From assembly GCF_003334335.1 (NCBI RefSeq), contig NZ_QOWQ01000002.1: DNA of 64,000 nucleotides; one strand, given 5' to 3'. Shown here piece by piece: positions 7,168 to 58,592 of this stretch. Numbering within the stretch: the first letter of the stretch is position 1; each line of letters begins with the position of its first letter. The translations under genes were made by a program, and so were the position numbers. A model generated the notes under the pieces. It was not told where the DNA came from, made no database searches, and saw only the letters and a list, made by a program, of their open reading frames with translations. Source of the DNA: Escherichia coli. GTDB lineage: Bacteria; Pseudomonadota; Gammaproteobacteria; Enterobacterales; Enterobacteriaceae.

Positions 7168-8290
7168 TGCTGATAAGACGCGCCAGCGTCGCATCAGGCA
7201 ACCGGCTCGGGCGTTAGATGTTGGATGCGGCGTAACCGCCTTATCCAACCTACGGGGTGGAGCACTTCACAGCGGTGTAGGCCTGATAAGACGCGCCAGC
7301 GTCGCATCAGGCAACCGGCTTGGGCGTTAGATGTCGGATGCGGCGTAACCGCCTTATCCGACCTACGGGGTGGAGCACTTCACAGCGGTGTAGGCCTGAT
7401 AAGACGCGCCAGCGTCGCATCAGGCAACCGGCTCGGACGTTGGATGTCGGATGCGGCGTAACCGCCTTATCCAACCTACGGGGTGGAGCACTTCACAGCG
7501 GTGTAGGCCTGATAAGACGCGCCAGCGTCGCATCAGGCAACCGGCTTGGGCGTTAGATGTCGGATGCGGCGTAACCGCCTTATCCGACCTACGGGGTGGA
7601 GCACTTCACAGCGGTGTAGGCCTGATAAGACGCGCCAGCGTCGCATCAGGCAACCGGCTCGGACGTTGGATGTCGGATGCGGCGTAACCGCCTTATCCAA
7701 CCTACGGGGTGGAGCACTTCACAGCGGTGTAGGCCTGATAAGACGCGCCAGCGTCGCATCAGGCAACCGGCTCGGGCGTTGGATGTCGGATGCGGCGTGA
7801 CCGCCTTGTCTGACCTACGGGGTGCCGCACTTCACAGCGGTGTAGGCCTGATAAGACGCGCCAGCGTCGCATCAGGCAACCGGCTCGGGCGTTGGATGTC
7901 GGATGCGGCGTGACCGCCTTGTCTGACCTACGGGGTGCCGCACTTCACAGCGGTGTAGGCCTGATAAGACGCGCCAGCGTCGCATCAGGCAACCGGCTCG
8001 GGCGTTGGATGTCGGATGCGGCGTGACCGCCTTGTCTGACCTACGGGGTGCCGCACTTCACAGCGGTGTAGGCCTGATAAGACGCGCCAGCGTCGCATCA
8101 GGCAACCGGCTCGGGCGTTGGATGTCGGATGCGGCGTGACCGCCTTGTCTGACCTACGGGGTGCCGCACTTCACAGCGGTGTAGGCCTGATAAGACGCGC
8201 CAGCGTCGCATCAGGCAACCGGCTCGGGCGTTGGATGTCGGATGCGGCGTGACCGCCTTGTCTGACCTACGGGGTGCCGCACTTCACGGC
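7168..8290. repeat. tandem array of ~10 REP/BIME units (113-bp period) between convergent mqo and eco
   Basis: REP palindrome gcctgataagacgcgccagcgtcgcatcaggc recurs at 7168 (variant), 7281, 7394, 7507, 7620, 7733, 7846, 7959, 8072 and 8185, interleaved with a second REP-type palindrome (cggatgcggcgtaaccgccttatccg and variants); first units alternate two variants (226-bp super-repeat), last five units near-identical. Confidence 0.9.
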
Positions 8291-43776: not shown

Positions 43777-45243
43777 TTAAATTTTGAGGGTGTTTAATAG
43801 CGCCTGATGTGCGCCGAATTGTACGATTTGTTGCCAGGCTTGTTCGATGGCCTGCACAAAATGCGGGTTATCTGGCAGATCATCACCGAAAACTTCACGC
43901 AGGGAAAGCAGGGCGGTTACGCGTTGTTCACTGCTGCTGCCCGCAACAAGTTCGCGAATTTTATCGCTAAGCGGATCGCGAACATCAATGGCATTTCCGG
44001 CATCATCAACGCCGCTGACGTAACGCATCCAGCCTGCAACGCCTAATGCCAGCAACGACCAGTCCGTTTCGCGCCCCTGATGTATGCGAATACCTGCCAG
44101 CATGCGTTGCGGTAATTTCTGGCTGCCATCCATCGCGATTTGCCAGGTCTTATGTTTCAGCGCCGGATTAGCAAAACGTGCAATTAACTTATCCGCATAT
44201 TGTGTTAAATCGACATCTTTAATTTGCAGTGTCGGCGCTTGCTCATCCAGCATTAATGTTCTGGCGGCATGGCGAAATGCGCGATCCTGCATGCAATCAC
44301 TGATATGGGCGAATCCTGAGAGGTAACCCAGATAAGCGAGAAAAGAGTGGCTGCCATTAAGCATCCGCAGTTTCATCTCTTCCCATGGCAGGACATCATT
44401 CACCATTTGTACACCTGCGACTTCCCAGGCAGGACGCCCAGCGACGAAGTTATCTTCCACCACCCACTGGATAAACGGTTCGCAGCTAATCGCGCAGGGA
44501 TCATTCACCCCCAGATGCTGGCTGATTTCCACCAGTGATTCGTCGGTTGCAGCCGGAACAATGCGGTCGACCATGGTTCCCGGAAAACTGACGTGCTCTT
44601 TTATCCACCCGGCGAGTTCTGGCGAACGTTTTTCTGCCATTCCCAGCACCGCGTTTTTCACCACATGACCATTGTCGGGAATATTGTCGCAGGAGAGCAC
44701 GGTAAACGGTGTAAGGCCGCGCTCACGGCGGCGTTTCAGTGCTTCGACGAGAATACCCGGTGCGGAGTGAGGTTCTTCAGGGGTTTGTAGATCGTGAATA
44801 ATCCGCGGATTACTGGTGTCGAGTGCACCGGTGGCCGGGTCAATACAATAGCCTTTTTCGGTAATCGTCAGGGAAACAATTGCCACCTGTGGCTCGCAAA
44901 ATTTCTCAATAATTGCCGCTAAGGAATCCAGTTTTGCATTAAGGCATTCGTGAACGGCACCGACAATTATCACCTGATTGCCGTCCGCACCTTTCTCCAG
45001 CACGGTATATAAATGGTTCTGTGCGCGGAGCTGGCTCATCAGTTGATCACCGCTGAACAAGCTGATTTCACAGATCCCCCAGTCGCCGCCCTGGGCATTC
45101 AGCACACGATCGGTCAGTAACGCCTGATGAGCGCGGTGAAAGGCTCCAAAGCCAAAATGAACGATACGTGATTGCAACTGCTGGCGATCATAGCGTGGAG
45201 CGTGTACATGATGCGGGAGCGTAACGGAGGCGATTGTATTCAT
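43777..45243 (-). CDS. yeiQ: mannitol dehydrogenase family oxidoreductase YeiQ
   Basis: Track ORF 43777..45252; I use the ATG at 45243 (MNTIASVTLPHH..., 488 aa). Confidence 0.88.
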   Translation of the reverse strand: MNTIASVTLPHHVHAPRYDRQQLQSRIVHFGFGAFHRAHQALLTDRVLNAQGGDWGICEISLFSGDQLMSQLRAQNHLYTVLEKGADGNQVIIVGAVHECLNAKLDSLAAIIEKFCEPQVAIVSLTITEKGYCIDPATGALDTSNPRIIHDLQTPEEPHSAPGILVEALKRRRERGLTPFTVLSCDNIPDNGHVVKNAVLGMAEKRSPELAGWIKEHVSFPGTMVDRIVPAATDESLVEISQHLGVNDPCAISCEPFIQWVVEDNFVAGRPAWEVAGVQMVNDVLPWEEMKLRMLNGSHSFLAYLGYLSGFAHISDCMQDRAFRHAARTLMLDEQAPTLQIKDVDLTQYADKLIARFANPALKHKTWQIAMDGSQKLPQRMLAGIRIHQGRETDWSLLALGVAGWMRYVSGVDDAGNAIDVRDPLSDKIRELVAGSSSEQRVTALLSLREVFGDDLPDNPHFVQAIEQAWQQIVQFGAHQALLNTLKI

Positions 45244-45465
45244 AGGAGTCACGTCTTAGTAACGATTAATTAACAACGACAGTGTAAAGTTATATGACAG
45301 CAATTGAAATTGGTCTGGATTGTTAATGCGATGAAGTGTGAGGGCGATCAATCAACGAGTGAAAATTGAGGGCGTAAGGTGTTCAGGAAGCGCAAAATAG
45401 AAGATTGGTATAATAAATTAAAAAAGGGACAGCCTGAGCTATCCCTTTTCTGCATGCGGCTGAAG

Positions 45466-46038
45466 TTAGTCAGCACGCCCCATATAACGGCGTTCTTCGA
45501 TATGGATACGAATTTTTTCGCCCGGGCTTAAGTATTCTGGTACCTGAATCACCAGACCAGTGCTCAATGTCGCCGGTTTGTTACGGGCGCTGGCAGATGC
45601 CCCTTTGATGCCTGGTGCGGTTTCAACGATTTCCAGATCAACGGTCTGCGGCAGCTCAAGCGCCAGCAGTTGACCGTCCCAGGTCAGCACCTGCATGTCC
45701 GGCATGCCGCCCTCTGGCATAAACAGCAACTCTTCTTCAATCTGATCTTTGGTGAAGGTATACGGGGTATAGTCTTCTTTATCCATAAAGACATATTCGT
45801 TGCCATCGACATAGGAGAAGTCAACGTAACGGCGGGTCAGCGTCACGGTGTCAACGATATCATCACCTTTGAAACGCTCTTCTACTTTCAGCCCGGTACG
45901 GACATCAGAAAAACGCATTTTGTACAGCGTAGCGGCACCGCGGGCAGTGGGCGACTGAATATCAATATCCTTAACCAGCAGCAGTTTGCCGTTGTAATTC
46001 AGTACCATACCTTTTTTAATTTCGTTCGCTCTTGGCAT
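45466..46038 (-). CDS. yeiP: elongation factor P-like protein YeiP (EfpL)
   Basis: Track ORF 45466..46293 is over-extended; I use the ATG at 46038 ([20 protein letters not shown]..., 190 aa), EF-P fold family. Confidence 0.9.
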
Positions 46039-46192
46039 CGAAAAATTCCTGTAGTCGAAAATGTCAAAAATATCGCGACAAAGTACTCGCGACGGGCCTT
46101 TCGGGCAAGTGGTATTCGCACTTTTGCTGGTGCAAAAAAGGTGGTACTGTGCGCGCTCATCAATCCGGTGGTTAACCTTAAGAGAACAACGT

Positions 46193-46447
46193 ATGGAATG
46201 CCGTCCGGGTTGCGGGGCGTGTTGCACTGCCCCTTCAATTTCCAGCCCTATTCCCGGTATGCCAGATGGCAAGCCCGCCAATACGCCCTGCATTCAGCTT
46301 GATGAACAGCAACGCTGTAAAATTTTCACCTCGCCACTGCGACCGAAAGTCTGTGCAGGCTTACAAGCCAGCGCTGAAATGTGCGGTAACTCGCGTCAGC
46401 AGGCCATGACCTGGCTTATCGATCTGGAAATGCTGACCGCGCCTTAA
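46193..46447 (+). CDS. yeiW: UPF0153 Cys-cluster protein YeiW
   Basis: 84-aa ORF from ATG 46193 ([18 protein letters not shown]...); track ORF 46061..46447 is over-extended. Confidence 0.8.
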
Positions 46448-47625
46448 ACATCTTTAATCCGCAGTAAGCAAAACAGAGTGGCGATAATCATCACCATCGC
46501 AAACCAGAACACAGCGTGATAATTCCAGATCTCGGCGACGATGCCCGCCACTGATCCTGCGATGATCCAGCCCACGCGCGAAGTGTTGGTATAGAGCGTG
46601 GTGGCTGAACCCGCCTGACCGGGCATCAGATCCTGAAAATAGAGCATCCCGATGCCGCCCAGAATGCCAATAAAAATAGCATTTAGCAGCTGCAAGCCCA
46701 ACAGAATGACAGGTGAATGCGCCATCAGCATTCCTGCGTAAAAACAGACGCCACCCACGGCAGCAACGCGCATTAAGAAACGCTTACCCAGACGTTTGGC
46801 GAAATATCCGGCAATCAACATCGTCGGGATTTCCAGCCCGGCGGCGGTCCCCATCATCACACCGGCCAGTTTCTCGGGAAGATGCAGTTCGTTGATAATA
46901 AATAGCGGCATGTTGATGATGTACAGGCTGTTCGAGCCCCACATCAATGTACAAATGACAAACAGCAGCAGCGTATCGCGACGGTTACGGCGCGGCGCTT
47001 CGATCGTGCCGGTCGCCAGCGGAAGCTCTTTTTGCATCGACGGTAAAAACAGCCACACCATCACACCGCAAACAATAAACGCTACCGCTGCGCTCAGATA
47101 CATTACCGTAAAGCTGAAACCCATCGCTAAGGCATAAGCCAGCGGTGGGCCAATGACCCATGCCAGTGAAACCTGAGCGCGTAAAAAAGAGCTGAACATC
47201 ACCGCCTCACGTCCGGTTTTGTCGGCATGTTCACGGGCAAGGGCAAACATTTGCGGGTTAGCGGTCGAGCCAAAGCTGCTAAGAAAGACGCCAACGAATA
47301 GCAAAACAAAGTAGTTGCGATTCCAGGCAAAAAGGGTGCAGGCCAGCACGCCTAACAGGCAGCAAAAGACAATCAGCGATTTGCGATCGCCGCGCTTATC
47401 AGAGCGCCCGGCGAGAAACTGACTTACCAGAATCCCAATGACAGCGCTGCCGGTAAAGAAGAATCCCACCATCGCCGGACGGGCATGTACTTCATCGGTA
47501 AGAAAAATACTGAGTGTCGGGGTTTGCAGAGCGCCCGCAATACCGGTGAGAAAGGCAACGATTAAAAACGCCGTCGAGGTCAGGTCAAACGATTTCGCGC
47601 TGGAGACTGCGGGGGAGTTATGCAT
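46444..47625 (-). CDS. setB: sugar efflux transporter SetB (MFS)
   Basis: 393-aa 12-[25 protein letters not shown]...; stop codon overlaps yeiW stop (TTAA at 46444-46447). Confidence 0.92.
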
Positions 47626-47890
47626 GCTGGTCGATCACTGGAAGAGGAAGACGCGGAGTTTACGCTGCTTGTCAGAAAATAAACAGACAGCGAAATCAAA
47701 AGCGCCACGAATAGTCAAAATGCCATTTCACTGTTGCTGATTGGCTGCTGACGCTGCTGAAATGAAATTGCTGATAACGGATTTTCCCATCAGCAATTAG
47801 GAAAAATGGCAAAAAATTGTGCAGCACATCAAACTTTTGCTCATAACTTTACGGCTTTCCTTGCGTGCTGAAACAGAAGTATTATGCTTT

Positions 47891-47906
47891 CTTGAAACGT
47901 TTCAGC
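47891..47906. promoter_or_regulatory. Cra (FruR) operator in fruB promoter
   Basis: cttgaaacgtttcagc, near-perfect match to the Cra palindrome GCTGAAACGTTTCAAG; a second weaker half-site gctgaaac at 47868-47875. Confidence 0.8.
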
Positions 47907-47992
47907 GCGATCTTGTCTTTAACCCTAAGCCAGGTTGGCGCTTTTTTTCTCATAGAGGCTGAATCGTTTCAATTCAGCAAGAGAGGAGAACT

Positions 47993-49123
47993 ATGTTCCA
48001 GTTATCCGTACAGGACATCCATCCGGGCGAAAAGGCCGGAGACAAAGAAGAGGCGATTCGCCAGGTCGCTGCGGCGCTGGTGCAGGCCGGTAATGTAGCA
48101 GAAGGCTACGTCAATGGCATGCTGGCGCGCGAACAGCAAACCTCAACGTTCCTCGGCAATGGTATTGCTATTCCACACGGCACTACCGACACCCGCGATC
48201 AGGTGCTGAAAACCGGCGTTCAGGTATTTCAGTTCCCGGAAGGCGTCACCTGGGGTGACGGTCAGGTAGCGTACGTGGCAATCGGTATTGCTGCCAGCTC
48301 GGATGAACATCTGGGCCTGCTACGCCAGCTGACCCACGTACTGAGCGATGATTCCGTTGCTGAACAACTGAAGTCAGCAACAACAGCAGAAGAACTTCGC
48401 GCATTACTGATGGGCGAAAAGCAGAGTGAGCAGCTGAAGCTCGACAACGAAATGCTGACACTGGATATCGTCGCCAGCGATCTGCTGACTCTTCAGGCGC
48501 TGAACGCTGCGCGTCTGAAAGAGGCGGGGGCAGTTGACGCCACTTTCGTCACCAAAGCCATCAATGAACAACCGCTGAATCTCGGACAGGGTATCTGGCT
48601 GAGCGATAGCGCCGAAGGCAATCTGCGTAGCGCGATTGCGGTAAGCCGTGCGGCAAATGCTTTTGATGTGGACGGCGAAACGGCAGCCATGCTGGTGAGT
48701 GTGGCGATGAATGACGATCAGCCCATCGCGGTTCTTAAGCGTCTCGCTGATTTATTGCTCGACAATAAAGCTGACCGCTTGCTGAAAGCGGATGCGGCAA
48801 CGTTGCTGGCGCTGCTGACCAGCGATGATGCGCCGACCGACGACGTGTTAAGCGCGGAGTTTGTGGTGCGCAATGAACACGGCCTGCATGCTCGTCCAGG
48901 TACCATGCTGGTCAATACCATTAAACAATTTAACAGTGATATTACCGTGACAAACCTTGATGGTACCGGCAAACCGGCAAACGGACGTAGTCTGATGAAA
49001 GTTGTGGCACTTGGCGTTAAGAAAGGTCATCGCCTACGCTTTACCGCCCAGGGTGCAGATGCTGAACAGGCGCTGAAAGCAATCGGCGACGCTATCGCTG
49101 CTGGTCTTGGGGAGGGCGCATAA
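47993..49123 (+). CDS. fruB: fructose PTS multiphosphoryl transfer protein FruB (IIA-M-HPr-like FPr)
   Basis: 376-aa [27 protein letters not shown]... Confidence 0.95.
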
Positions 49124-50061
49124 TGAGCAGACGTGTTGCTACTATCACCCTTAATCCGGCTTATGACCTTGTTGGTTTCTGCCCGGAAATTGAACGCGGC
49201 GAAGTGAACCTGGTGAAAACCACCGGTCTGCATGCGGCGGGTAAAGGCATCAACGTGGCCAAAGTATTAAAAGACCTGGGAATTGATGTCACCGTTGGCG
49301 GCTTCCTGGGTAAAGACAATCAGGATGGTTTTCAGCAACTGTTCAGCGAGCTGGGCATTGCCAACCGTTTCCAGGTTGTACAGGGGCGCACCCGAATTAA
49401 CGTTAAGCTGACGGAAAAAGACGGCGAAGTGACCGACTTCAACTTCTCGGGTTTTGAAGTCACCCCCGCCGACTGGGAACGCTTTGTGACTGATTCTCTG
49501 AGCTGGCTCGGTCAGTTCGATATGGTCTGTGTCAGCGGAAGCTTACCGTCAGGCGTCAGCCCGGAAGCGTTCACCGACTGGATGACTCGCCTGCGTAGTC
49601 AGTGTCCTTGCATTATCTTTGATAGTAGCCGTGAAGCGTTAGTAGCAGGTTTGAAAGCGGCACCGTGGCTGGTGAAACCTAACCGCCGCGAGCTGGAAAT
49701 CTGGGCAGGCCGTAAACTGCCTGAAATGAAAGATGTGATTGAAGCTGCACATGCGCTACGTGAACAAGGCATCGCGCATGTTGTTATTTCACTGGGTGCC
49801 GAAGGCGCGCTTTGGGTTAATGCCTCCGGCGAATGGATCGCCAAACCACCGTCAGTCGATGTCGTAAGCACCGTTGGCGCAGGGGATTCTATGGTTGGTG
49901 GCCTGATTTATGGCTTGCTGATGCGTGAATCCAGTGAACACACACTGCGTCTGGCGACAGCTGTTGCAGCCCTGGCGGTAAGTCAAAGCAATGTGGGTAT
50001 TACCGATCGTCCGCAGTTGGCCGCAATGATGGCGCGCGTCGACTTACAACCTTTTAACTGA
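49123..50061 (+). CDS. fruK: 1-phosphofructokinase
   Basis: 312-aa PfkB-family ORF; start overlaps fruB stop. Confidence 0.95.
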   Translation: MSRRVATITLNPAYDLVGFCPEIERGEVNLVKTTGLHAAGKGINVAKVLKDLGIDVTVGGFLGKDNQDGFQQLFSELGIANRFQVVQGRTRINVKLTEKDGEVTDFNFSGFEVTPADWERFVTDSLSWLGQFDMVCVSGSLPSGVSPEAFTDWMTRLRSQCPCIIFDSSREALVAGLKAAPWLVKPNRRELEIWAGRKLPEMKDVIEAAHALREQGIAHVVISLGAEGALWVNASGEWIAKPPSVDVVSTVGAGDSMVGGLIYGLLMRESSEHTLRLATAVAALAVSQSNVGITDRPQLAAMMARVDLQPFN

Positions 50062-50077
50062 CAGCAGGAGAGGCATA

Positions 50078-51769
50078 ATGAAAACGCTGCTGATTATTGA
50101 CGCTAATCTCGGTCAGGCACGCGCCTATATGGCGAAGACCCTGCTGGGCGCGGCGGCGCGAAAAGCAAAACTGGAAATCATCGACAATCCGAACGACGCT
50201 GAAATGGCGATTGTTCTCGGTGATTCCATCCCGAACGACAGCGCGCTGAACGGTAAAAATGTCTGGCTGGGCGATATTTCCCGGGCAGTTGCGCACCCTG
50301 AGCTGTTCCTGAGTGAAGCCAAAGGCCATGCGAAACCTTACACTGCGCCGGTCGCTGCGACAGCACCAGTTGCCGCCAGCGGTCCGAAACGCGTAGTTGC
50401 GGTGACTGCTTGCCCGACTGGCGTAGCACACACCTTTATGGCGGCTGAAGCCATTGAAACCGAAGCGAAAAAACGTGGCTGGTGGGTGAAAGTTGAAACC
50501 CGTGGTTCTGTTGGCGCGGGTAATGCAATCACTCCCGAAGAAGTCGCAGCAGCGGATCTGGTGATTGTGGCGGCAGATATCGAAGTGGATCTGGCGAAAT
50601 TTGCTGGTAAACCGATGTATCGTACCTCTACCGGTCTGGCGCTGAAGAAAACCGCGCAGGAACTGGATAAAGCGGTTGCTGAAGCAACGCCGTATGAACC
50701 GGCGGGCAAAGCTCAAACGGCGACCACTGAAAGTAAGAAAGAGAGTGCAGGCGCATACCGTCACTTGCTGACGGGCGTTTCTTACATGCTGCCGATGGTC
50801 GTTGCAGGTGGTCTGTGTATCGCGCTTTCTTTTGCTTTTGGTATCGAAGCGTTTAAAGAGCCGGGTACGTTGGCTGCGGCGCTGATGCAGATTGGTGGTG
50901 GTTCAGCCTTTGCGCTGATGGTGCCGGTACTGGCAGGTTATATTGCCTTTTCCATTGCCGATCGTCCGGGCCTCACTCCGGGTCTGATTGGCGGTATGCT
51001 GGCGGTCAGCACCGGTTCTGGCTTCATTGGTGGTATTATTGCGGGCTTCCTGGCTGGTTACATTGCGAAGTTAATCAGTACGCAATTGAAACTGCCACAG
51101 AGTATGGAGGCGCTGAAACCGATCCTGATCATTCCGCTAATTTCCAGTCTGGTGGTCGGTCTGGCGATGATCTACCTGATCGGTAAACCAGTTGCTGGCA
51201 TTCTCGAAGGGCTGACTCACTGGCTGCAGACCATGGGGACTGCGAATGCGGTTCTGCTGGGGGCGATCCTCGGTGGCATGATGTGTACTGACATGGGCGG
51301 TCCGGTAAACAAAGCAGCGTACGCATTCGGTGTGGGTCTGCTGAGTACTCAAACCTATGGCCCGATGGCGGCGATTATGGCGGCAGGTATGGTGCCACCG
51401 CTGGCAATGGGTCTGGCAACAATGGTGGCGCGTCGCAAATTCGACAAAGCGCAGCAGGAAGGTGGCAAAGCCGCTCTGGTATTGGGACTGTGCTTCATTT
51501 CGGAAGGTGCAATTCCGTTTGCTGCTCGTGATCCGATGCGTGTGCTGCCGTGCTGTATCGTGGGTGGGGCGCTGACTGGCGCAATCTCAATGGCGATTGG
51601 TGCGAAACTGATGGCACCGCACGGTGGTCTGTTTGTTCTGCTGATCCCTGGCGCTATTACGCCGGTATTGGGTTACCTAGTAGCAATTATTGCCGGTACG
51701 CTGGTGGCGGGTTTGGCCTATGCCTTCCTGAAACGTCCGGAAGTGGACGCAGTAGCGAAAGCAGCGTAA
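50078..51769 (+). CDS. fruA: fructose-specific PTS IIB'BC component
   Basis: 563-aa ORF with two IIB-like regions and polytopic IIC domain. Confidence 0.95.
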   Translation: MKTLLIIDANLGQARAYMAKTLLGAAARKAKLEIIDNPNDAEMAIVLGDSIPNDSALNGKNVWLGDISRAVAHPELFLSEAKGHAKPYTAPVAATAPVAASGPKRVVAVTACPTGVAHTFMAAEAIETEAKKRGWWVKVETRGSVGAGNAITPEEVAAADLVIVAADIEVDLAKFAGKPMYRTSTGLALKKTAQELDKAVAEATPYEPAGKAQTATTESKKESAGAYRHLLTGVSYMLPMVVAGGLCIALSFAFGIEAFKEPGTLAAALMQIGGGSAFALMVPVLAGYIAFSIADRPGLTPGLIGGMLAVSTGSGFIGGIIAGFLAGYIAKLISTQLKLPQSMEALKPILIIPLISSLVVGLAMIYLIGKPVAGILEGLTHWLQTMGTANAVLLGAILGGMMCTDMGGPVNKAAYAFGVGLLSTQTYGPMAAIMAAGMVPPLAMGLATMVARRKFDKAQQEGGKAALVLGLCFISEGAIPFAARDPMRVLPCCIVGGALTGAISMAIGAKLMAPHGGLFVLLIPGAITPVLGYLVAIIAGTLVAGLAYAFLKRPEVDAVAKAA

Positions 51770-51778
51770 TAAAAGGTG

Positions 51779-51811
51779 TGTTACAGGGCAGAAATTTCCT
51801 GTCCTGTAACA
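51779..51811 (+). terminator. stem-loop immediately after fruA (possible terminator)
   Basis: tgttacagg-...-cctgtaaca inverted repeat 10 nt after fruA stop; weak T-run. Confidence 0.4.
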
Positions 51812-51926
51812 TTTGATGAGCGCAAAGAGAATGACCGGTTTGTGAATGTAATTTTATGAATTTAAATGGTTTTATCTTTCAGTAGAAACTTCAAACGTTC
51901 ATCAAACACTCAGGTTATTTCCTCAA

Positions 51927-51952
51927 GGGCAGATTATTTTCTGCCCTTTTTT
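51927..51952 (+). terminator. rho-independent terminator downstream of fruA
   Basis: gggcag-attatttt-ctgccc followed by TTTTTT. Confidence 0.75.
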
Positions 51953-52191
51953 ATTGTTCTGTTCTGTGCATCCCGTCACAAATTCCTCGCTTTTGTAATT
52001 CAGGCATTTAATCGCATTTTGTGAGCCTGCTCAAATCTGCCCATTTTGCCTCTCTGGCGGTAATTTACTTTACGTAAAACATGCATACTATGAGCACATG
52101 TTTAAATATGAACACATGTTTAAACCGTCTTTGCAGTATCTATATTCTTGTGGATTGACAGGGTTGGTAATTTTTTACCAGAGGACGTGCT

Positions 52192-53133
52192 ATGCGCGAA
52201 AAGGATTATGTCGTAATTATAGGTTCGGCGAATATTGATGTCGCCGGATATTCACATGAATCATTAAATTATGCGGATTCAAATCCAGGTAAAATAAAAT
52301 TTACGCCTGGTGGAGTAGGGCGCAATATTGCACAAAACCTGGCGTTGCTGGGTAACAAAGCCTGGCTACTGAGCGCCGTAGGCAGTGATTTTTATGGTCA
52401 ATCGCTGCTAACGCAAACCAATCAATCTGGCGTTTATGTCGATAAATGCCTGATTGTGCCGGGAGAAAATACGTCGAGTTATTTATCATTACTCGATAAT
52501 ACCGGTGAAATGCTGGTTGCTATAAATGACATGAATATTAGCAACGCTATTACAGCTGAATATCTCGCACAGCACGGTGAATTTATTCAGAGGGCAAAGG
52601 TCATTGTCGCGGACTGTAATATCAGTGAAGAGGCACTGGCATGGATTCTGGATAATGCCGCCAACGTACCCGTATTTGTCGATCCGGTTTCGGCATGGAA
52701 ATGTGTCAAAGTGCGCGACCGTCTAAATCAGATCCACACTCTCAAGCCAAACCGCCTTGAAGCGGAAACCCTGAGTGGGATTGCGCTGTCAGGGCGTGAA
52801 GATGTGGCAAAAGTTGCTGCCTGGTTCCATCAACATGGCCTGAACCGACTGGTATTGAGCATGGGCGGCGACGGCGTTTATTACAGCGATATCAGCGGTG
52901 AAAGTGGCTGGTCTGCGCCGATCAAAACCAATGTTATTAATGTTACCGGAGCGGGCGATGCCATGATGGCGGGACTTGCTTCGTGTTGGGTAGACGGAAT
53001 GCCGTTTGCCGAATCTGTTCGTTTCGCACAGGGATGTTCGTCAATGGCGCTCTCCTGTGAATACACCAATAACCCCGATTTATCGATTGCCAACGTTATA
53101 TCGTTAGTGGAGAACGCAGAATGTCTGAATTAA
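52192..53133 (+). CDS. psuK: pseudouridine kinase
   Basis: 313-aa PfkB-family ORF MREKDYVVIIGSANIDVAG...GAGDAMMAG. Confidence 0.92.
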   Translation: MREKDYVVIIGSANIDVAGYSHESLNYADSNPGKIKFTPGGVGRNIAQNLALLGNKAWLLSAVGSDFYGQSLLTQTNQSGVYVDKCLIVPGENTSSYLSLLDNTGEMLVAINDMNISNAITAEYLAQHGEFIQRAKVIVADCNISEEALAWILDNAANVPVFVDPVSAWKCVKVRDRLNQIHTLKPNRLEAETLSGIALSGREDVAKVAAWFHQHGLNRLVLSMGGDGVYYSDISGESGWSAPIKTNVINVTGAGDAMMAGLASCWVDGMPFAESVRFAQGCSSMALSCEYTNNPDLSIANVISLVENAECLN

Positions 53134-54059
53134 AAATTTCCCCTGAATTATTACAAATTTCCCCGGAAGTGCAGGACGCTTTAAAAAACAAAAAACCGGT
53201 TGTGGCGCTGGAATCGACCATTATTTCTCACGGGATGCCGTTCCCACAAAATGCCCAGACCGCAATTGAAGTTGAAGAAACTATTCGTAAACAGGGCGCT
53301 GTACCTGCCACGATCGCCATTATTGGCGGCGTGATGAAAGTGGGGTTAAGCAAAGAAGAAATTGAATTACTGGGTCGTGAAGGGCATAACGTGACCAAAG
53401 TTAGTCGTCGCGATTTACCTTTTGTTGTTGCCGCCGGAAAAAATGGCGCAACCACTGTGGCTTCAACGATGATTATTGCGGCGCTTGCCGGAATTAAAGT
53501 ATTTGCCACCGGGGGAATTGGTGGTGTGCATCGCGGGGCGGAACATACCTTCGATATTTCTGCCGATTTGCAAGAACTGGCAAATACTAATGTCACCGTT
53601 GTTTGTGCCGGGGCGAAATCTATTCTCGATTTAGGATTAACCACTGAGTATTTAGAAACCTTCGGTGTGCCGTTAATTGGCTATCAGACTAAAGCGCTGC
53701 CTGCGTTTTTCTGCCGCACCAGCCCGTTTGACGTCAGCATTCGTCTCGACAGCGCCAGCGAAATTGCCCGTGCAATGGCGGTGAAATGGCAAAGCGGTCT
53801 GAACGGTGGCCTCGTGGTAGCGAACCCGATCCCGGAACAGTTTGCTATGCCGGAACACACTATCAATGCGGCGATCGATCAGGCGGTAGCTGAAGCTGAA
53901 GCTCAGGGAGTCATTGGTAAAGAAAGTACGCCATTCCTGCTGGCGCGCGTTGCTGAACTGACCGGCGGTGACAGCCTGAAATCCAACATCCAGCTGGTGT
54001 TCAACAACGCCATTCTGGCGAGCGAAATTGCCAAAGAATATCAGCGTCTCGCGGGTTAA
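53121..54059 (+). CDS. psuG: pseudouridine-5'-phosphate glycosidase
   Basis: 312-aa ORF MSELKISPELLQISPEVQDALKNKKPVVALESTIISHGMPFPQN...; overlaps psuK end. Confidence 0.92.
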   Translation: MSELKISPELLQISPEVQDALKNKKPVVALESTIISHGMPFPQNAQTAIEVEETIRKQGAVPATIAIIGGVMKVGLSKEEIELLGREGHNVTKVSRRDLPFVVAAGKNGATTVASTMIIAALAGIKVFATGGIGGVHRGAEHTFDISADLQELANTNVTVVCAGAKSILDLGLTTEYLETFGVPLIGYQTKALPAFFCRTSPFDVSIRLDSASEIARAMAVKWQSGLNGGLVVANPIPEQFAMPEHTINAAIDQAVAEAEAQGVIGKESTPFLLARVAELTGGDSLKSNIQLVFNNAILASEIAKEYQRLAG

Positions 54060-54152
54060 TTTCTGACGGGCAGAAAGCCGTCGCCCGTACTCATCAAGCA
54101 TACCAAAACCTGGCGCTGACGCCGGGTTTACCGGCATGAAGGGAAAATCATT

Positions 54153-55402
54153 ATGGATATAATGAGAAGTGTTGTGGGGATGGTGGTGTTACTGGCAATA
54201 GCATTTCTGTTGTCAGTGAATAAAAAGAGCATCAGTTTGCGCACGGTTGGAGCCGCACTGCTGCTGCAAATCGCTATTGGTGGCATCATGCTCTACTTCC
54301 CACCGGGAAAATGGGCAGTAGAACAGGCGGCATTAGGCGTTCATAAAGTGATGTCTTACAGTGATGCCGGTAGCGCCTTCATTTTTGGTTCGCTGGTTGG
54401 GCCGAAAATGGATGTCCTGTTTGACGGTGCGGGTTTTATCTTCGCCTTTCGCGTACTTCCGGCGATTATTTTCGTTACTGCGCTCATCAGTCTGCTGTAC
54501 TACATTGGCGTGATGGGGCTGCTGATTCGCATCCTTGGCAGCATTTTCCAGAAAGCCCTCAACATCAGCAAAATCGAATCTTTTGTTGCGGTTACTACTA
54601 TTTTCCTCGGGCAAAATGAGATCCCGGCGATCGTTAAACCGTTTATCGATCGCATGAATCGCAACGAGTTGTTTACCGCAATTTGTAGCGGGATGGCGTC
54701 CATTGCTGGTTCGATGATGATTGGTTATGCCGGAATGGGCGTACCAATTGACTACCTGTTAGCGGCATCGCTGATGGCGATCCCTGGCGGGATTTTGTTT
54801 GCACGTATTCTTAGCCCGGCAACCGAGCCTTCGCAGGTCACATTTGAAAATCTGTCGTTCAGCGAAACGCCGCCAAAAAGCTTTATCGAAGCGGCGGCGA
54901 GCGGTGCGATGACCGGGCTAAAAATCGCCGCGGTGTGGCGACGGTGGTAATGGCGTTTGTCGCAATTATTGCGCTGATCAACGGCATTATCGGCGGAATT
55001 GGCGGCTGGTTTGGTTTCGCCAATGCCTCTCTGGAAAGTATTTTTGGCTATGTGCTGGCACCGCTGGCGTGGATCATGGGTGTGGACTGGAGTGATGCCA
55101 ATCTTGCGGGTAGCCTGATTGGGCAGAAACTGGCGATTAACGAATTCGTCGCTTACCTGAGTTTCTCCCCATACCTGCAAACGGGCGGCACGCTGGAAGT
55201 GAAAACCATTGCGATTATCTCCTTTGCGCTTTGTGGTTTTGCTAACTTTGGTTCTATCGGTGTTGTCGTTGGCGCATTTTCGGCTATTTCGCCAAAACGC
55301 GCGCCGGAAATCGCCCAGCTTGGTTTACGGGCGCTGGCAGCAGCAACGCTTTCCAACCTGATGAGTGCGACTATTGCCGGGTTCTTTATTGGTCTGGCGT
55401 AA
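54153..55402 (+). pseudogene. psuT: NupC-family nucleoside (pseudouridine) transporter PsuT, apparently frameshifted
   Basis: Two overlapping ORFs 54153..54950 (265 aa) and 54935..55402 (155 aa) together span 1250 nt, one base short of an intact 416-aa gene; the paralog nupX reads gccgcaggtgtggca where psuT reads gccgcggtgtggcg (about 54927-54936). Confidence 0.7.
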
Positions 55403-57341: not shown

Positions 57342-58592
57342 ATGGATGTCATGAGAAGTGTTCTGGGAATGGTGGTATTGCTGACGATTGCGTTTTTACT
57401 GTCAGTAAACAAGAAGAAGATCAGCCTGCGTACCGTTGGCGCGGCGTTAGTGTTACAGGTCGTGATTGGCGGCATTATGCTTTGGTTACCGCCAGGGCGT
57501 TGGGTCGCTGAAAAAGTCGCTTTTGGCGTGCATAAAGTGATGGCGTACAGCGACGCGGGTAGCGCATTTATCTTCGGTTCTCTGGTCGGACCGAAAATGG
57601 ATACCTTATTTGATGGTGCAGGATTTATCTTTGGTTTCAGGGTGTTACCGGCAATTATCTTCGTCACCGCGCTGGTGAGTATTCTCTACTACATCGGTGT
57701 GATGGGGATTTTAATTCGAATTCTCGGCGGTATCTTCCAGAAAGCATTAAATATCAGCAAGATCGAGTCATTCGTCGCGGTCACCACCATTTTCCTCGGG
57801 CAAAACGAAATTCCGGCAATCGTCAAACCCTTTATCGATCGTCTGAATCGCAATGAATTATTTACAGCGATTTGTAGTGGCATGGCCTCGATTGCTGGTT
57901 CGACAATGATTGGTTACGCCGCACTGGGCGTGCCTGTGGAATATCTGCTGGCGGCATCATTAATGGCGATCCCTGGCGGGATCTTGTTTGCCCGCCTGTT
58001 AAGCCCGGCAACGGAATCTTCGCAGGTTTCCTTTAATAACCTCTCTTTCACCGAAACACCGCCAAAAAGCATTATTGAAGCCGCTGCGACAGGGGCAATG
58101 ACCGGGCTGAAAATCGCCGCAGGTGTGGCAACAGTGGTGATGGCATTTGTTGCAATAATTGCGTTGATTAACGGTATTATCGGCGGCGTTGGTGGCTGGT
58201 TTGGTTTTGAACATGCCTCGCTGGAGTCCATTTTAGGTTACCTGCTGGCTCCACTGGCGTGGGTGATGGGTGTGGACTGGAGTGATGCGAATCTTGCCGG
58301 GAGTTTGATTGGACAGAAACTGGCAATAAATGAATTTGTCGCTTATCTCAATTTCTCACCCTATCTGCAAACGGCTGGCACTCTCGATGCTAAAACTGTG
58401 GCGATTATTTCCTTCGCGTTGTGCGGTTTCGCTAACTTTGGTTCTATCGGGGTGGTGGTGGGGGCGTTTTCTGCGGTTGCGCCACACCGTGCGCCGGAAA
58501 TCGCCCAGCTTGGTTTACGGGCGCTGGCGGCGGCGACGCTTTCCAACTTGATGAGTGCGACCATTGCCGGGTTCTTTATTGGTTTAGCTTGA
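57342..58592 (+). CDS. nupX: NupC-family nucleoside transporter NupX
   Basis: 416-aa polytopic ORF, roughly 85% identical by eye to the reconstructed PsuT. Confidence 0.92.
   Translation: MDVMRSVLGMVVLLTIAFLLSVNKKKISLRTVGAALVLQVVIGGIMLWLPPGRWVAEKVAFGVHKVMAYSDAGSAFIFGSLVGPKMDTLFDGAGFIFGFRVLPAIIFVTALVSILYYIGVMGILIRILGGIFQKALNISKIESFVAVTTIFLGQNEIPAIVKPFIDRLNRNELFTAICSGMASIAGSTMIGYAALGVPVEYLLAASLMAIPGGILFARLLSPATESSQVSFNNLSFTETPPKSIIEAAATGAMTGLKIAAGVATVVMAFVAIIALINGIIGGVGGWFGFEHASLESILGYLLAPLAWVMGVDWSDANLAGSLIGQKLAINEFVAYLNFSPYLQTAGTLDAKTVAIISFALCGFANFGSIGVVVGAFSAVAPHRAPEIAQLGLRALAAATLSNLMSATIAGFFIGLA

Follow-up and report, generated by a model that had tools for sequence, protein, structure and literature searches.

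A one-nucleotide deletion splits psuT in an Escherichia coli strain and very probably makes it a recent, lineage-private pseudogene

The stretch of DNA analysed here (the window, 64,000 nucleotides, to which all positions refer unless a reference numbering is indicated) is collinear with the ompC-to-cirA region of Escherichia coli, and it contains the genes psuK, psuG and psuT, a convergent yeiL and then rihB and nupX, in the same order as in strain MG1655. The last gene of the psuK-psuG-psuT operon, psuT, is not found in the window as a single reading frame. An ORF scan yields two overlapping ORFs on the plus strand, of 265 and 155 aa (Table 1), and the locus measures 1250 nt, whereas it is 1251 nt long in MG1655 and in thousands of other genomes. 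The ORF list and the comparison of length with MG1655 therefore agree with the original prediction, which had described psuT as two overlapping frames, one nucleotide short of 1251. The best matches to psuT among 5,426 complete E. coli genomes have 1251 nt, share 99.9% identity with the window sequence and are annotated as a single psuT gene. It had also been put forward that the kinase and glycosidase genes are kept while psuT is broken, and indeed psuK and psuG are represented by intact ORFs of 313 and 312 aa. Given that psuT is the last gene of the operon and that yeiL converges on it, no polar effect of the lesion is expected.

Table 1. Features in and around the psuT locus, with their positions in the window and the source of each assignment
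Feature	Position	Strand	Description and basis
psuK (pseudouridine kinase)	52192..53133	+	Intact, 313 aa; ORF list; length as in MG1655 and PEC1009
psuG (pseudouridine-5'-phosphate glycosidase)	53121..54059	+	Intact, 312 aa; ORF list; MG1655 and PEC1009 annotation
psuT, 5' part	54153..54950	+	260 native codons, then V-W-R-R-W and TAA; 265 aa; ORF list, codon view, Pfam
7-bp hairpin TCGCCGC-GGT-GTGGCGA	54925..54941	+	Folding of the window, MG1655 and nupX versions
Deletion junction (one T missing)	54931..54932	+	Comparison with MG1655 and PEC1009; nupX gap at the same column
psuT, 3' remnant in the original frame	54935..55402	+	155 aa from GTG 54935; 150 aa from ATG 54950 (native Met267)
TAATG	54948..54952	+	New stop overlaps the native Met267 ATG by one base; sequence, codon view
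38-nt stretch identical in psuT and nupX	55301..55338	+	Shared 31-mer scan, contig ends
nupX (yeiJ), intact paralogue	57342..58592	+	416 aa; ORF list; BLASTP, 88% aa identity to intact PsuT

The lesion had been anticipated at about 54927-54936, and the lone alignment gap does fall within this interval, between positions 54931 (C) and 54932 (G), whether the window is aligned with nupX (where the gap occupies column 780), with MG1655 or with strain PEC1009. The MG1655 gene (yeiM, b2164; WP_000353878.1, UniProt P33024) is identical in DNA to that of the window over all 1251 nt save one T, so that, base by base, ATC GCC GCT GGT GTG in MG1655 faces ATC GCC GC- GGT GTG in the window. The proposed alignment with K-12 was thus carried out, and it shows that MG1655 psuT is an intact single gene, not two annotated ones: it consists of one 416-aa ORF, whereas the window gene is split at codon 260/261 into a part of 265 aa and another of 150-155 aa. 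The deleted T is nt 780 of MG1655 psuT and the third base of the Ala260 codon, GCT. In the intact reference its surroundings read ...ATCGCCGC-T-GGTGTGG... (the undeleted form of the whole site being GCCGCTGGTG), and nupX has an A at the position of the T. Relative to its orthologues, therefore, the psuT ORF is cut by an indel whose length is not divisible by three, as is characteristic of a frameshift pseudogene.

The nature of the missing base differs from what had been supposed, namely that it adjoins a short run of G, that an extra G would repair the gene and that the run might be prone to slippage. No identical base adjoins the deleted T, which is flanked by C on one side and by GG on the other and does not belong to any homopolymer. 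Since a single T within a hairpin loop is what was lost, the notion of a slippery G run is unsupported, and homopolymer slippage, as well as a homopolymer sequencing error, was discarded on account of these flanking bases. The intact hairpin, TCGCCGC-TGGT-GTGGCGA (reference nt 773-790), has a 4-nt loop of which the deleted T is the first base, and in the window the loop is reduced to 3 nt, with folding energies of -12.0 kcal/mol for the MG1655 version, -10.1 for that of the window and -8.0 for that of nupX. The location of the T at the start of the loop suggests that the mutation may have arisen through misalignment at a quasi-palindrome and not through homopolymer slippage. A scan for promoters and terminators gave nothing informative. 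On the minus strand, a terminator-like consensus match inside psuT (54943-54926) is made up of the 7-bp hairpin and, after it, the complement of the A5 run, and it is probably fortuitous.

Comparison with the closest relatives places the lesion on a well-defined background. An origin of the window from K-12 was ruled out because yejO is intact, because there are SNPs with respect to MG1655 and because the number of copies in a repeat array differs. The autotransporter gene yejO encodes 863 aa here (22507..25098), whereas in MG1655 it is a pseudogene split by IS5, and the two sequences differ by ~16 SNPs when the repeat array is excluded. This array, a 113-bp REP-like tandem repeat at 7170-8287, between mqo and eco, has 9.9 copies in the window (97% matches), compared with ~6 in MG1655 and ~5 in PEC1009, and most of the apparent mismatches that separate the window from its relatives stem from this variation in copy number. 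The nearest complete genome for both halves of the window is that of strain PEC1009 (NZ_CP160468). Over ~63 kb, with the repeat array excluded, the window differs from it by five SNPs (1525, 18445, 19918, 22997 and 37560) and by the psuT deletion as the sole indel. The gene is intact in the annotations of both PEC1009 and MG1655, which encode the same PsuT protein, and hence the frameshift is found next to a close relative in which psuT is whole. That the deletion is the only 1-bp indel in ~63 kb of an alignment otherwise free of indels, both to MG1655 and to PEC1009, argues for a discrete event and against a noisy assembly. Likewise, a single indel together with five SNPs with respect to PEC1009 indicates that the lesion is very recent relative to the divergence of these close relatives.

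The occurrence of the deletion was then sought in public sequence data. A 66-nt query centred on the lesion matched 3,238 of the complete E. coli genomes, none of them at an identity of 99% or more. Since such a query would overlook the deletion on a diverged background, a junction-only 30-mer, which can be seeded solely by the deletion allele, was also searched, and it was present in none of the 5,426 complete E. coli genomes; the junction 30-mer had no match in the JGI metagenome contigs either. In contrast, an exact-sequence look-up in Logan, which is composed of assemblies built directly from public sequencing runs, revealed the exact 265-aa frameshift product, including its VWRRW tail, on about 9 contigs. 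The runs involved include SRR30938087, SRR27434586 and SRR32903638, and one contig of 26.8 kb is common to five samples (represented by SRR30938087). When three of these loci were retrieved at the DNA level, all three carried the identical deletion of the T at reference nt 780. One of them (L005) corresponds to window 44153-55330 at 100.000% identity (11,178 nt) and another (L007) is identical to the window over 1,343 nt. The third (L006, the SRR27434586 contig, equivalent to window 53988-55330) has, in addition to the deletion, three SNPs in 1.3 kb (54023, 54041 and 54311), which could mean that the mutation recurred, that recombination took place or that a mixed sample gave rise to a chimeric contig. 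The lesion is thus reproducible, in the sense that the identical deletion appears in Logan assemblies of about 9 runs. All the lesion-carrying Logan contigs stop at window 55330, because the 38-nt identity between psuT and nupX breaks assembly at k=31; the nupX copy of the shared stretch lies at ~58491-58528.

These data bear directly on the possibility, raised with the original prediction, that the lesion is an error of sequencing or assembly, that is, that psuT is intact in this strain and its T went missing during sequencing or polishing. Losing a single base is a frequent type of error, as illustrated by the 4.77-Mb contig of GCA_019431085.1, which has six 1-bp insertions in psuT alone. 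Furthermore, with the allele absent from the 5,426 complete genomes and from the JGI metagenome contigs, support comes from Logan runs only, and these might include the source assembly's own reads or not be independent of one another. However, another pipeline, assembling about 9 runs from three accession ranges de novo, arrived at the same deletion, the contigs are long, at 26.8 kb, and terminate precisely at a 31-mer repeat, the lost T lies outside any homopolymer, and there is no other 1-bp indel in ~63 kb of the window. Accurate reads produce just this picture, with long contigs interrupted solely where there is a genuine repeat. The pattern in GCA_019431085.1, where the neighbours psuK, psuG, yeiL, rihB and nupX are all fragmented as well, is the signature of uncorrected long-read errors and contrasts with the clean sequence of the window. 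An artefact is consequently judged unlikely. As the same lesion is found in assemblies made from reads, which break only at the repeat, and as noise of the GCA_019431085.1 type is missing here, a real mutation is favoured, and the suggestion of a strain-specific pseudogene gains support from these read-based assemblies. We are therefore fairly confident that the sequence reflects a genuine, recent and lineage-private one-T frameshift in psuT, which would make it a loss-of-function pseudogene.

The fate of psuT in the species as a whole offers a context for this lesion. Of the 5,426 complete E. coli genomes, 5,415 possess at least 80% of the gene. Among 60 records sampled at even intervals, nearly all matches are full length, the exceptions being one IS1 insertion, the pseudogene of strain SMN013SH2 and one truncation. 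In the complete genome of SMN013SH2 (NZ_CP023673), psuT is annotated as 'frameshifted; internal stop'. The adjoining yeiL of that strain is annotated with an internal stop as well, which may denote either local decay or a problem of assembly quality. One match among the complete genomes (H129), whose psuT also spans 1250 nt, was considered as a carrier of the same allele and rejected, since it is a different annotated pseudogene. Just upstream of Met267, at reference nt 683-790, no fewer than nine further and distinct psuT lesions are seen in public draft assemblies and metagenomes; they comprise deletions of 1, 1, 7, 11, 16, 43, 52 and ~74 nt and one 1-nt insertion. This set was retrieved by means of the 150-aa ORF that starts at Met267, a procedure biased to lesions just upstream of that codon, and for this reason the clustering at nt 683-790 was not accepted as proof of a hotspot. 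In the same ascertainment-biased sample, one end of each of three deletions (of 16, 11 and 52 nt) coincides with the hairpin boundaries (nt 773, 780 and 790), so the hairpin at nt 773-790 may be a hotspot for quasi-palindrome deletions, which we regard as a lead and not as a result.

Could the inactivation of psuT have been positively selected, for example because it avoids the uptake of a toxic nucleoside analogue or the entry of a phage or colicin, instead of being the product of neutral decay? The presence of the same deletion in L006, a contig that carries 3 additional SNPs within 1.3 kb, points in this direction, as do the many different psuT lesions in public assemblies and the fact that deletion of psuT is well tolerated in engineered strains (PMC13090712). 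Against this, the gene is kept, mostly intact, in ~99.8% of the complete genomes, the catalogue of other lesions suffers from the bias just described, L006 may be a contig from a mixed sample, and the selective benefit is purely conjectural. Selection of this kind is thus improbable, and the loss of psuT is presumed to have been neutral or nearly so.

The consequences of the frameshift can be predicted from the organization of the intact protein. Intact PsuT contains the three Pfam domains that define membership of the CNT/NupC family, namely Nucleos_tra2_N (PF01773, residues 8-81), Gate (PF07670, 98-196) and Nucleos_tra2_C (PF07662, 201-410). It also aligns end to end with CNTs of solved structure, such as CNT-NW (5L26, E = 9e-132) and vcCNT (3TIJ, E = 2e-125), in alignments that cover residues ~1-415 with E values in the range 1e-131 to 1e-125. 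The break falls inside Nucleos_tra2_C. The two ORFs of the window hold the three domains jointly: Nucleos_tra2_N, Gate and the start of Nucleos_tra2_C are recognized in the 265-aa product and Nucleos_tra2_C in that of 150 aa. The codon view locates the motifs GQNE in HP1 (153-156), INEF in HP2 (329-332) and FANFGS in TM7 (363-368), and a hydrophobic stretch with its core at ~261-281 was taken as the likely TM6. The motif GQNE is common to PsuT and NupX, and the corresponding HP1 motif of vcCNT is GQTE. In the window, GQNE is encoded by the first ORF and both INEF and FANFGS by the second, which codes for most of TM6 plus HP2, TM7 and TM8, so that the elements of the CNT binding site are not gathered in a single polypeptide.

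The relevance of this separation can be appreciated from the structure of vcCNT, in which the tips of HP1 and HP2, together with the unwound regions of TM4 and TM7, enclose the nucleoside site, the base being bound by HP1 and TM4b and the ribose by HP2 and TM7b, and in which TM6, as an element of the static scaffold, contributes to the intracellular gate (PMC4139061). In the proposed sequence of events, one T would have been deleted from the Ala260 codon, at the first loop base of the small hairpin, and translation would run through 260 native residues, continue with V-W-R-R-W and stop. The truncated PsuT would retain the N-terminal helices, HP1 and TM4 (with GQNE at 153-156). It would be devoid of TM6, HP2, TM7 and TM8, and the ribose-binding half of the substrate site would be gone. 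Because these elements, and with them half of the nucleoside-binding site, would be missing, the truncated protein should be inactive for transport.

A more elaborate outcome is a split but functional CNT, in which translation would stop at TAA (54948-54950) and re-initiate at ATG 54950, and the two fragments (residues 1-260 plus VWRRW, and residues 267-416) would co-assemble. There are transporters, LacY among them, that withstand being expressed in two pieces, and a similar tolerance might be invoked here. The TAATG overlap between stop and start does exist, with GGTGG just upstream, and it could permit re-initiation to give the C-terminal 150 aa; the loss would be limited to six native residues (261-266), where the TM6 hydrophobic stretch begins. 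However, TAATG is absent from all other complete genomes and is for that reason regarded as a chance consequence of a private mutation, no more than 2 nt separate the SD-like GGTGG from the ATG, a charged W-R-R-W tail is added to the first fragment, and re-initiation and co-assembly are both purely putative. Moreover, the break would shorten TM6, the static helix of the scaffold relative to which the transport domain is displaced (PMC4139061). A functional protein of this kind is very improbable, and we would grant only a slim chance to the locus housing either a natural split CNT that arises by re-initiation at TAATG or a recurrent hotspot of psuT deletions at the hairpin (54925-54941). As for a leaky or programmed -1 frameshift on CTA-AAA-A (54918-54924), which would restore 416 aa with changes at residues 258-260 only (I-A-A to N-R-R), the downstream frame is indeed the -1 one and stays open from 54848 on, A-AAA allows tRNA-Lys to pair again and a 7-bp hairpin follows (z = -2.76 for the 77-nt segment), but the arrangement is found in none of the 5,426 complete genomes or JGI metagenomes and so is not conserved, there is no X-XXY-YYZ heptamer (only CTA-AAA-ATC, that is A-AAA-A, with ATC unfit for YYZ), the hairpin begins ~1 nt past the slip site on the A run, when the usual spacer is 5-9 nt, and the intact gene, which needs no frameshift, has the same hairpin, so that programmed frameshifting was ruled out and this route is scarcely credible.

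The label of PsuT as a pseudouridine transporter derives from its association in an operon with psuK and psuG; when expressed from a plasmid, PsuT gave no detectable transport of gemcitabine, uridine, cytidine or xanthosine, and NupX is reported to carry uridine and cytidine with low efficiency (PMC11241209). Our literature search found no report of a pseudouridine transport assay for PsuT. In production strains, deletion of psuT modestly raises pseudouridine titres, which is consistent with a role in re-uptake, and shows that the gene is dispensable in culture (PMC13090712). The proposal that the strain has lost a dedicated pseudouridine transporter is hence a reasonable one that rests on the operon association, and compensation of this putative loss by nupX is reasonable too, if conjectural. 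The NupX protein, encoded 2.4 kb downstream and intact here, has the same length (416 aa) and the same domain layout as PsuT, to which it is 88% identical in amino acids. The DNA identity of the two genes is 79% overall, and their final ~100 nt are nearly identical. This near-identity, together with the exact 38-nt stretch, suggests that gene conversion may have acted at the 3' ends of psuT and nupX.

In practical terms, the appropriate annotation for psuT here is that of a frameshifted pseudogene and not of two 'nucleoside transporter domain' proteins, and PsuT-mediated uptake should be removed from metabolic models of the strain. Carried by 0 of 5,426 complete genomes and by a few sequencing runs, the del(T) allele constitutes a convenient lineage marker, and the isolates, if available, would be natural psuT-null strains with intact psuK and psuG that could be used to test PsuT as an importer of pseudouridine. 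Beyond annotation, the importance of the lesion is small. With around a hundred pseudogenes in a typical E. coli genome, the occurrence of one in a 64-kb window is unsurprising.

Intact PsuT shares with CNT-NW (5L26 and others) and vcCNT (3TIJ) the three Pfam domains and the HP1, HP2 and TM7 motifs, whereas the product encoded in the window stops before TM6 and is left without HP2, TM7 and TM8. The other psuT pseudogenes, that of SMN013SH2 and those caused by IS1 insertions in strains MSB1_9I and 600029, resemble the present one in that a small indel or an IS interrupts the gene while the neighbours are kept. The lesions of these three strains all differ from the present one, and none of them is the deletion of the T at nt 780. 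In this company, psuT of the window is an ordinary strain-specific pseudogene, of a known kind and with no new mechanism.
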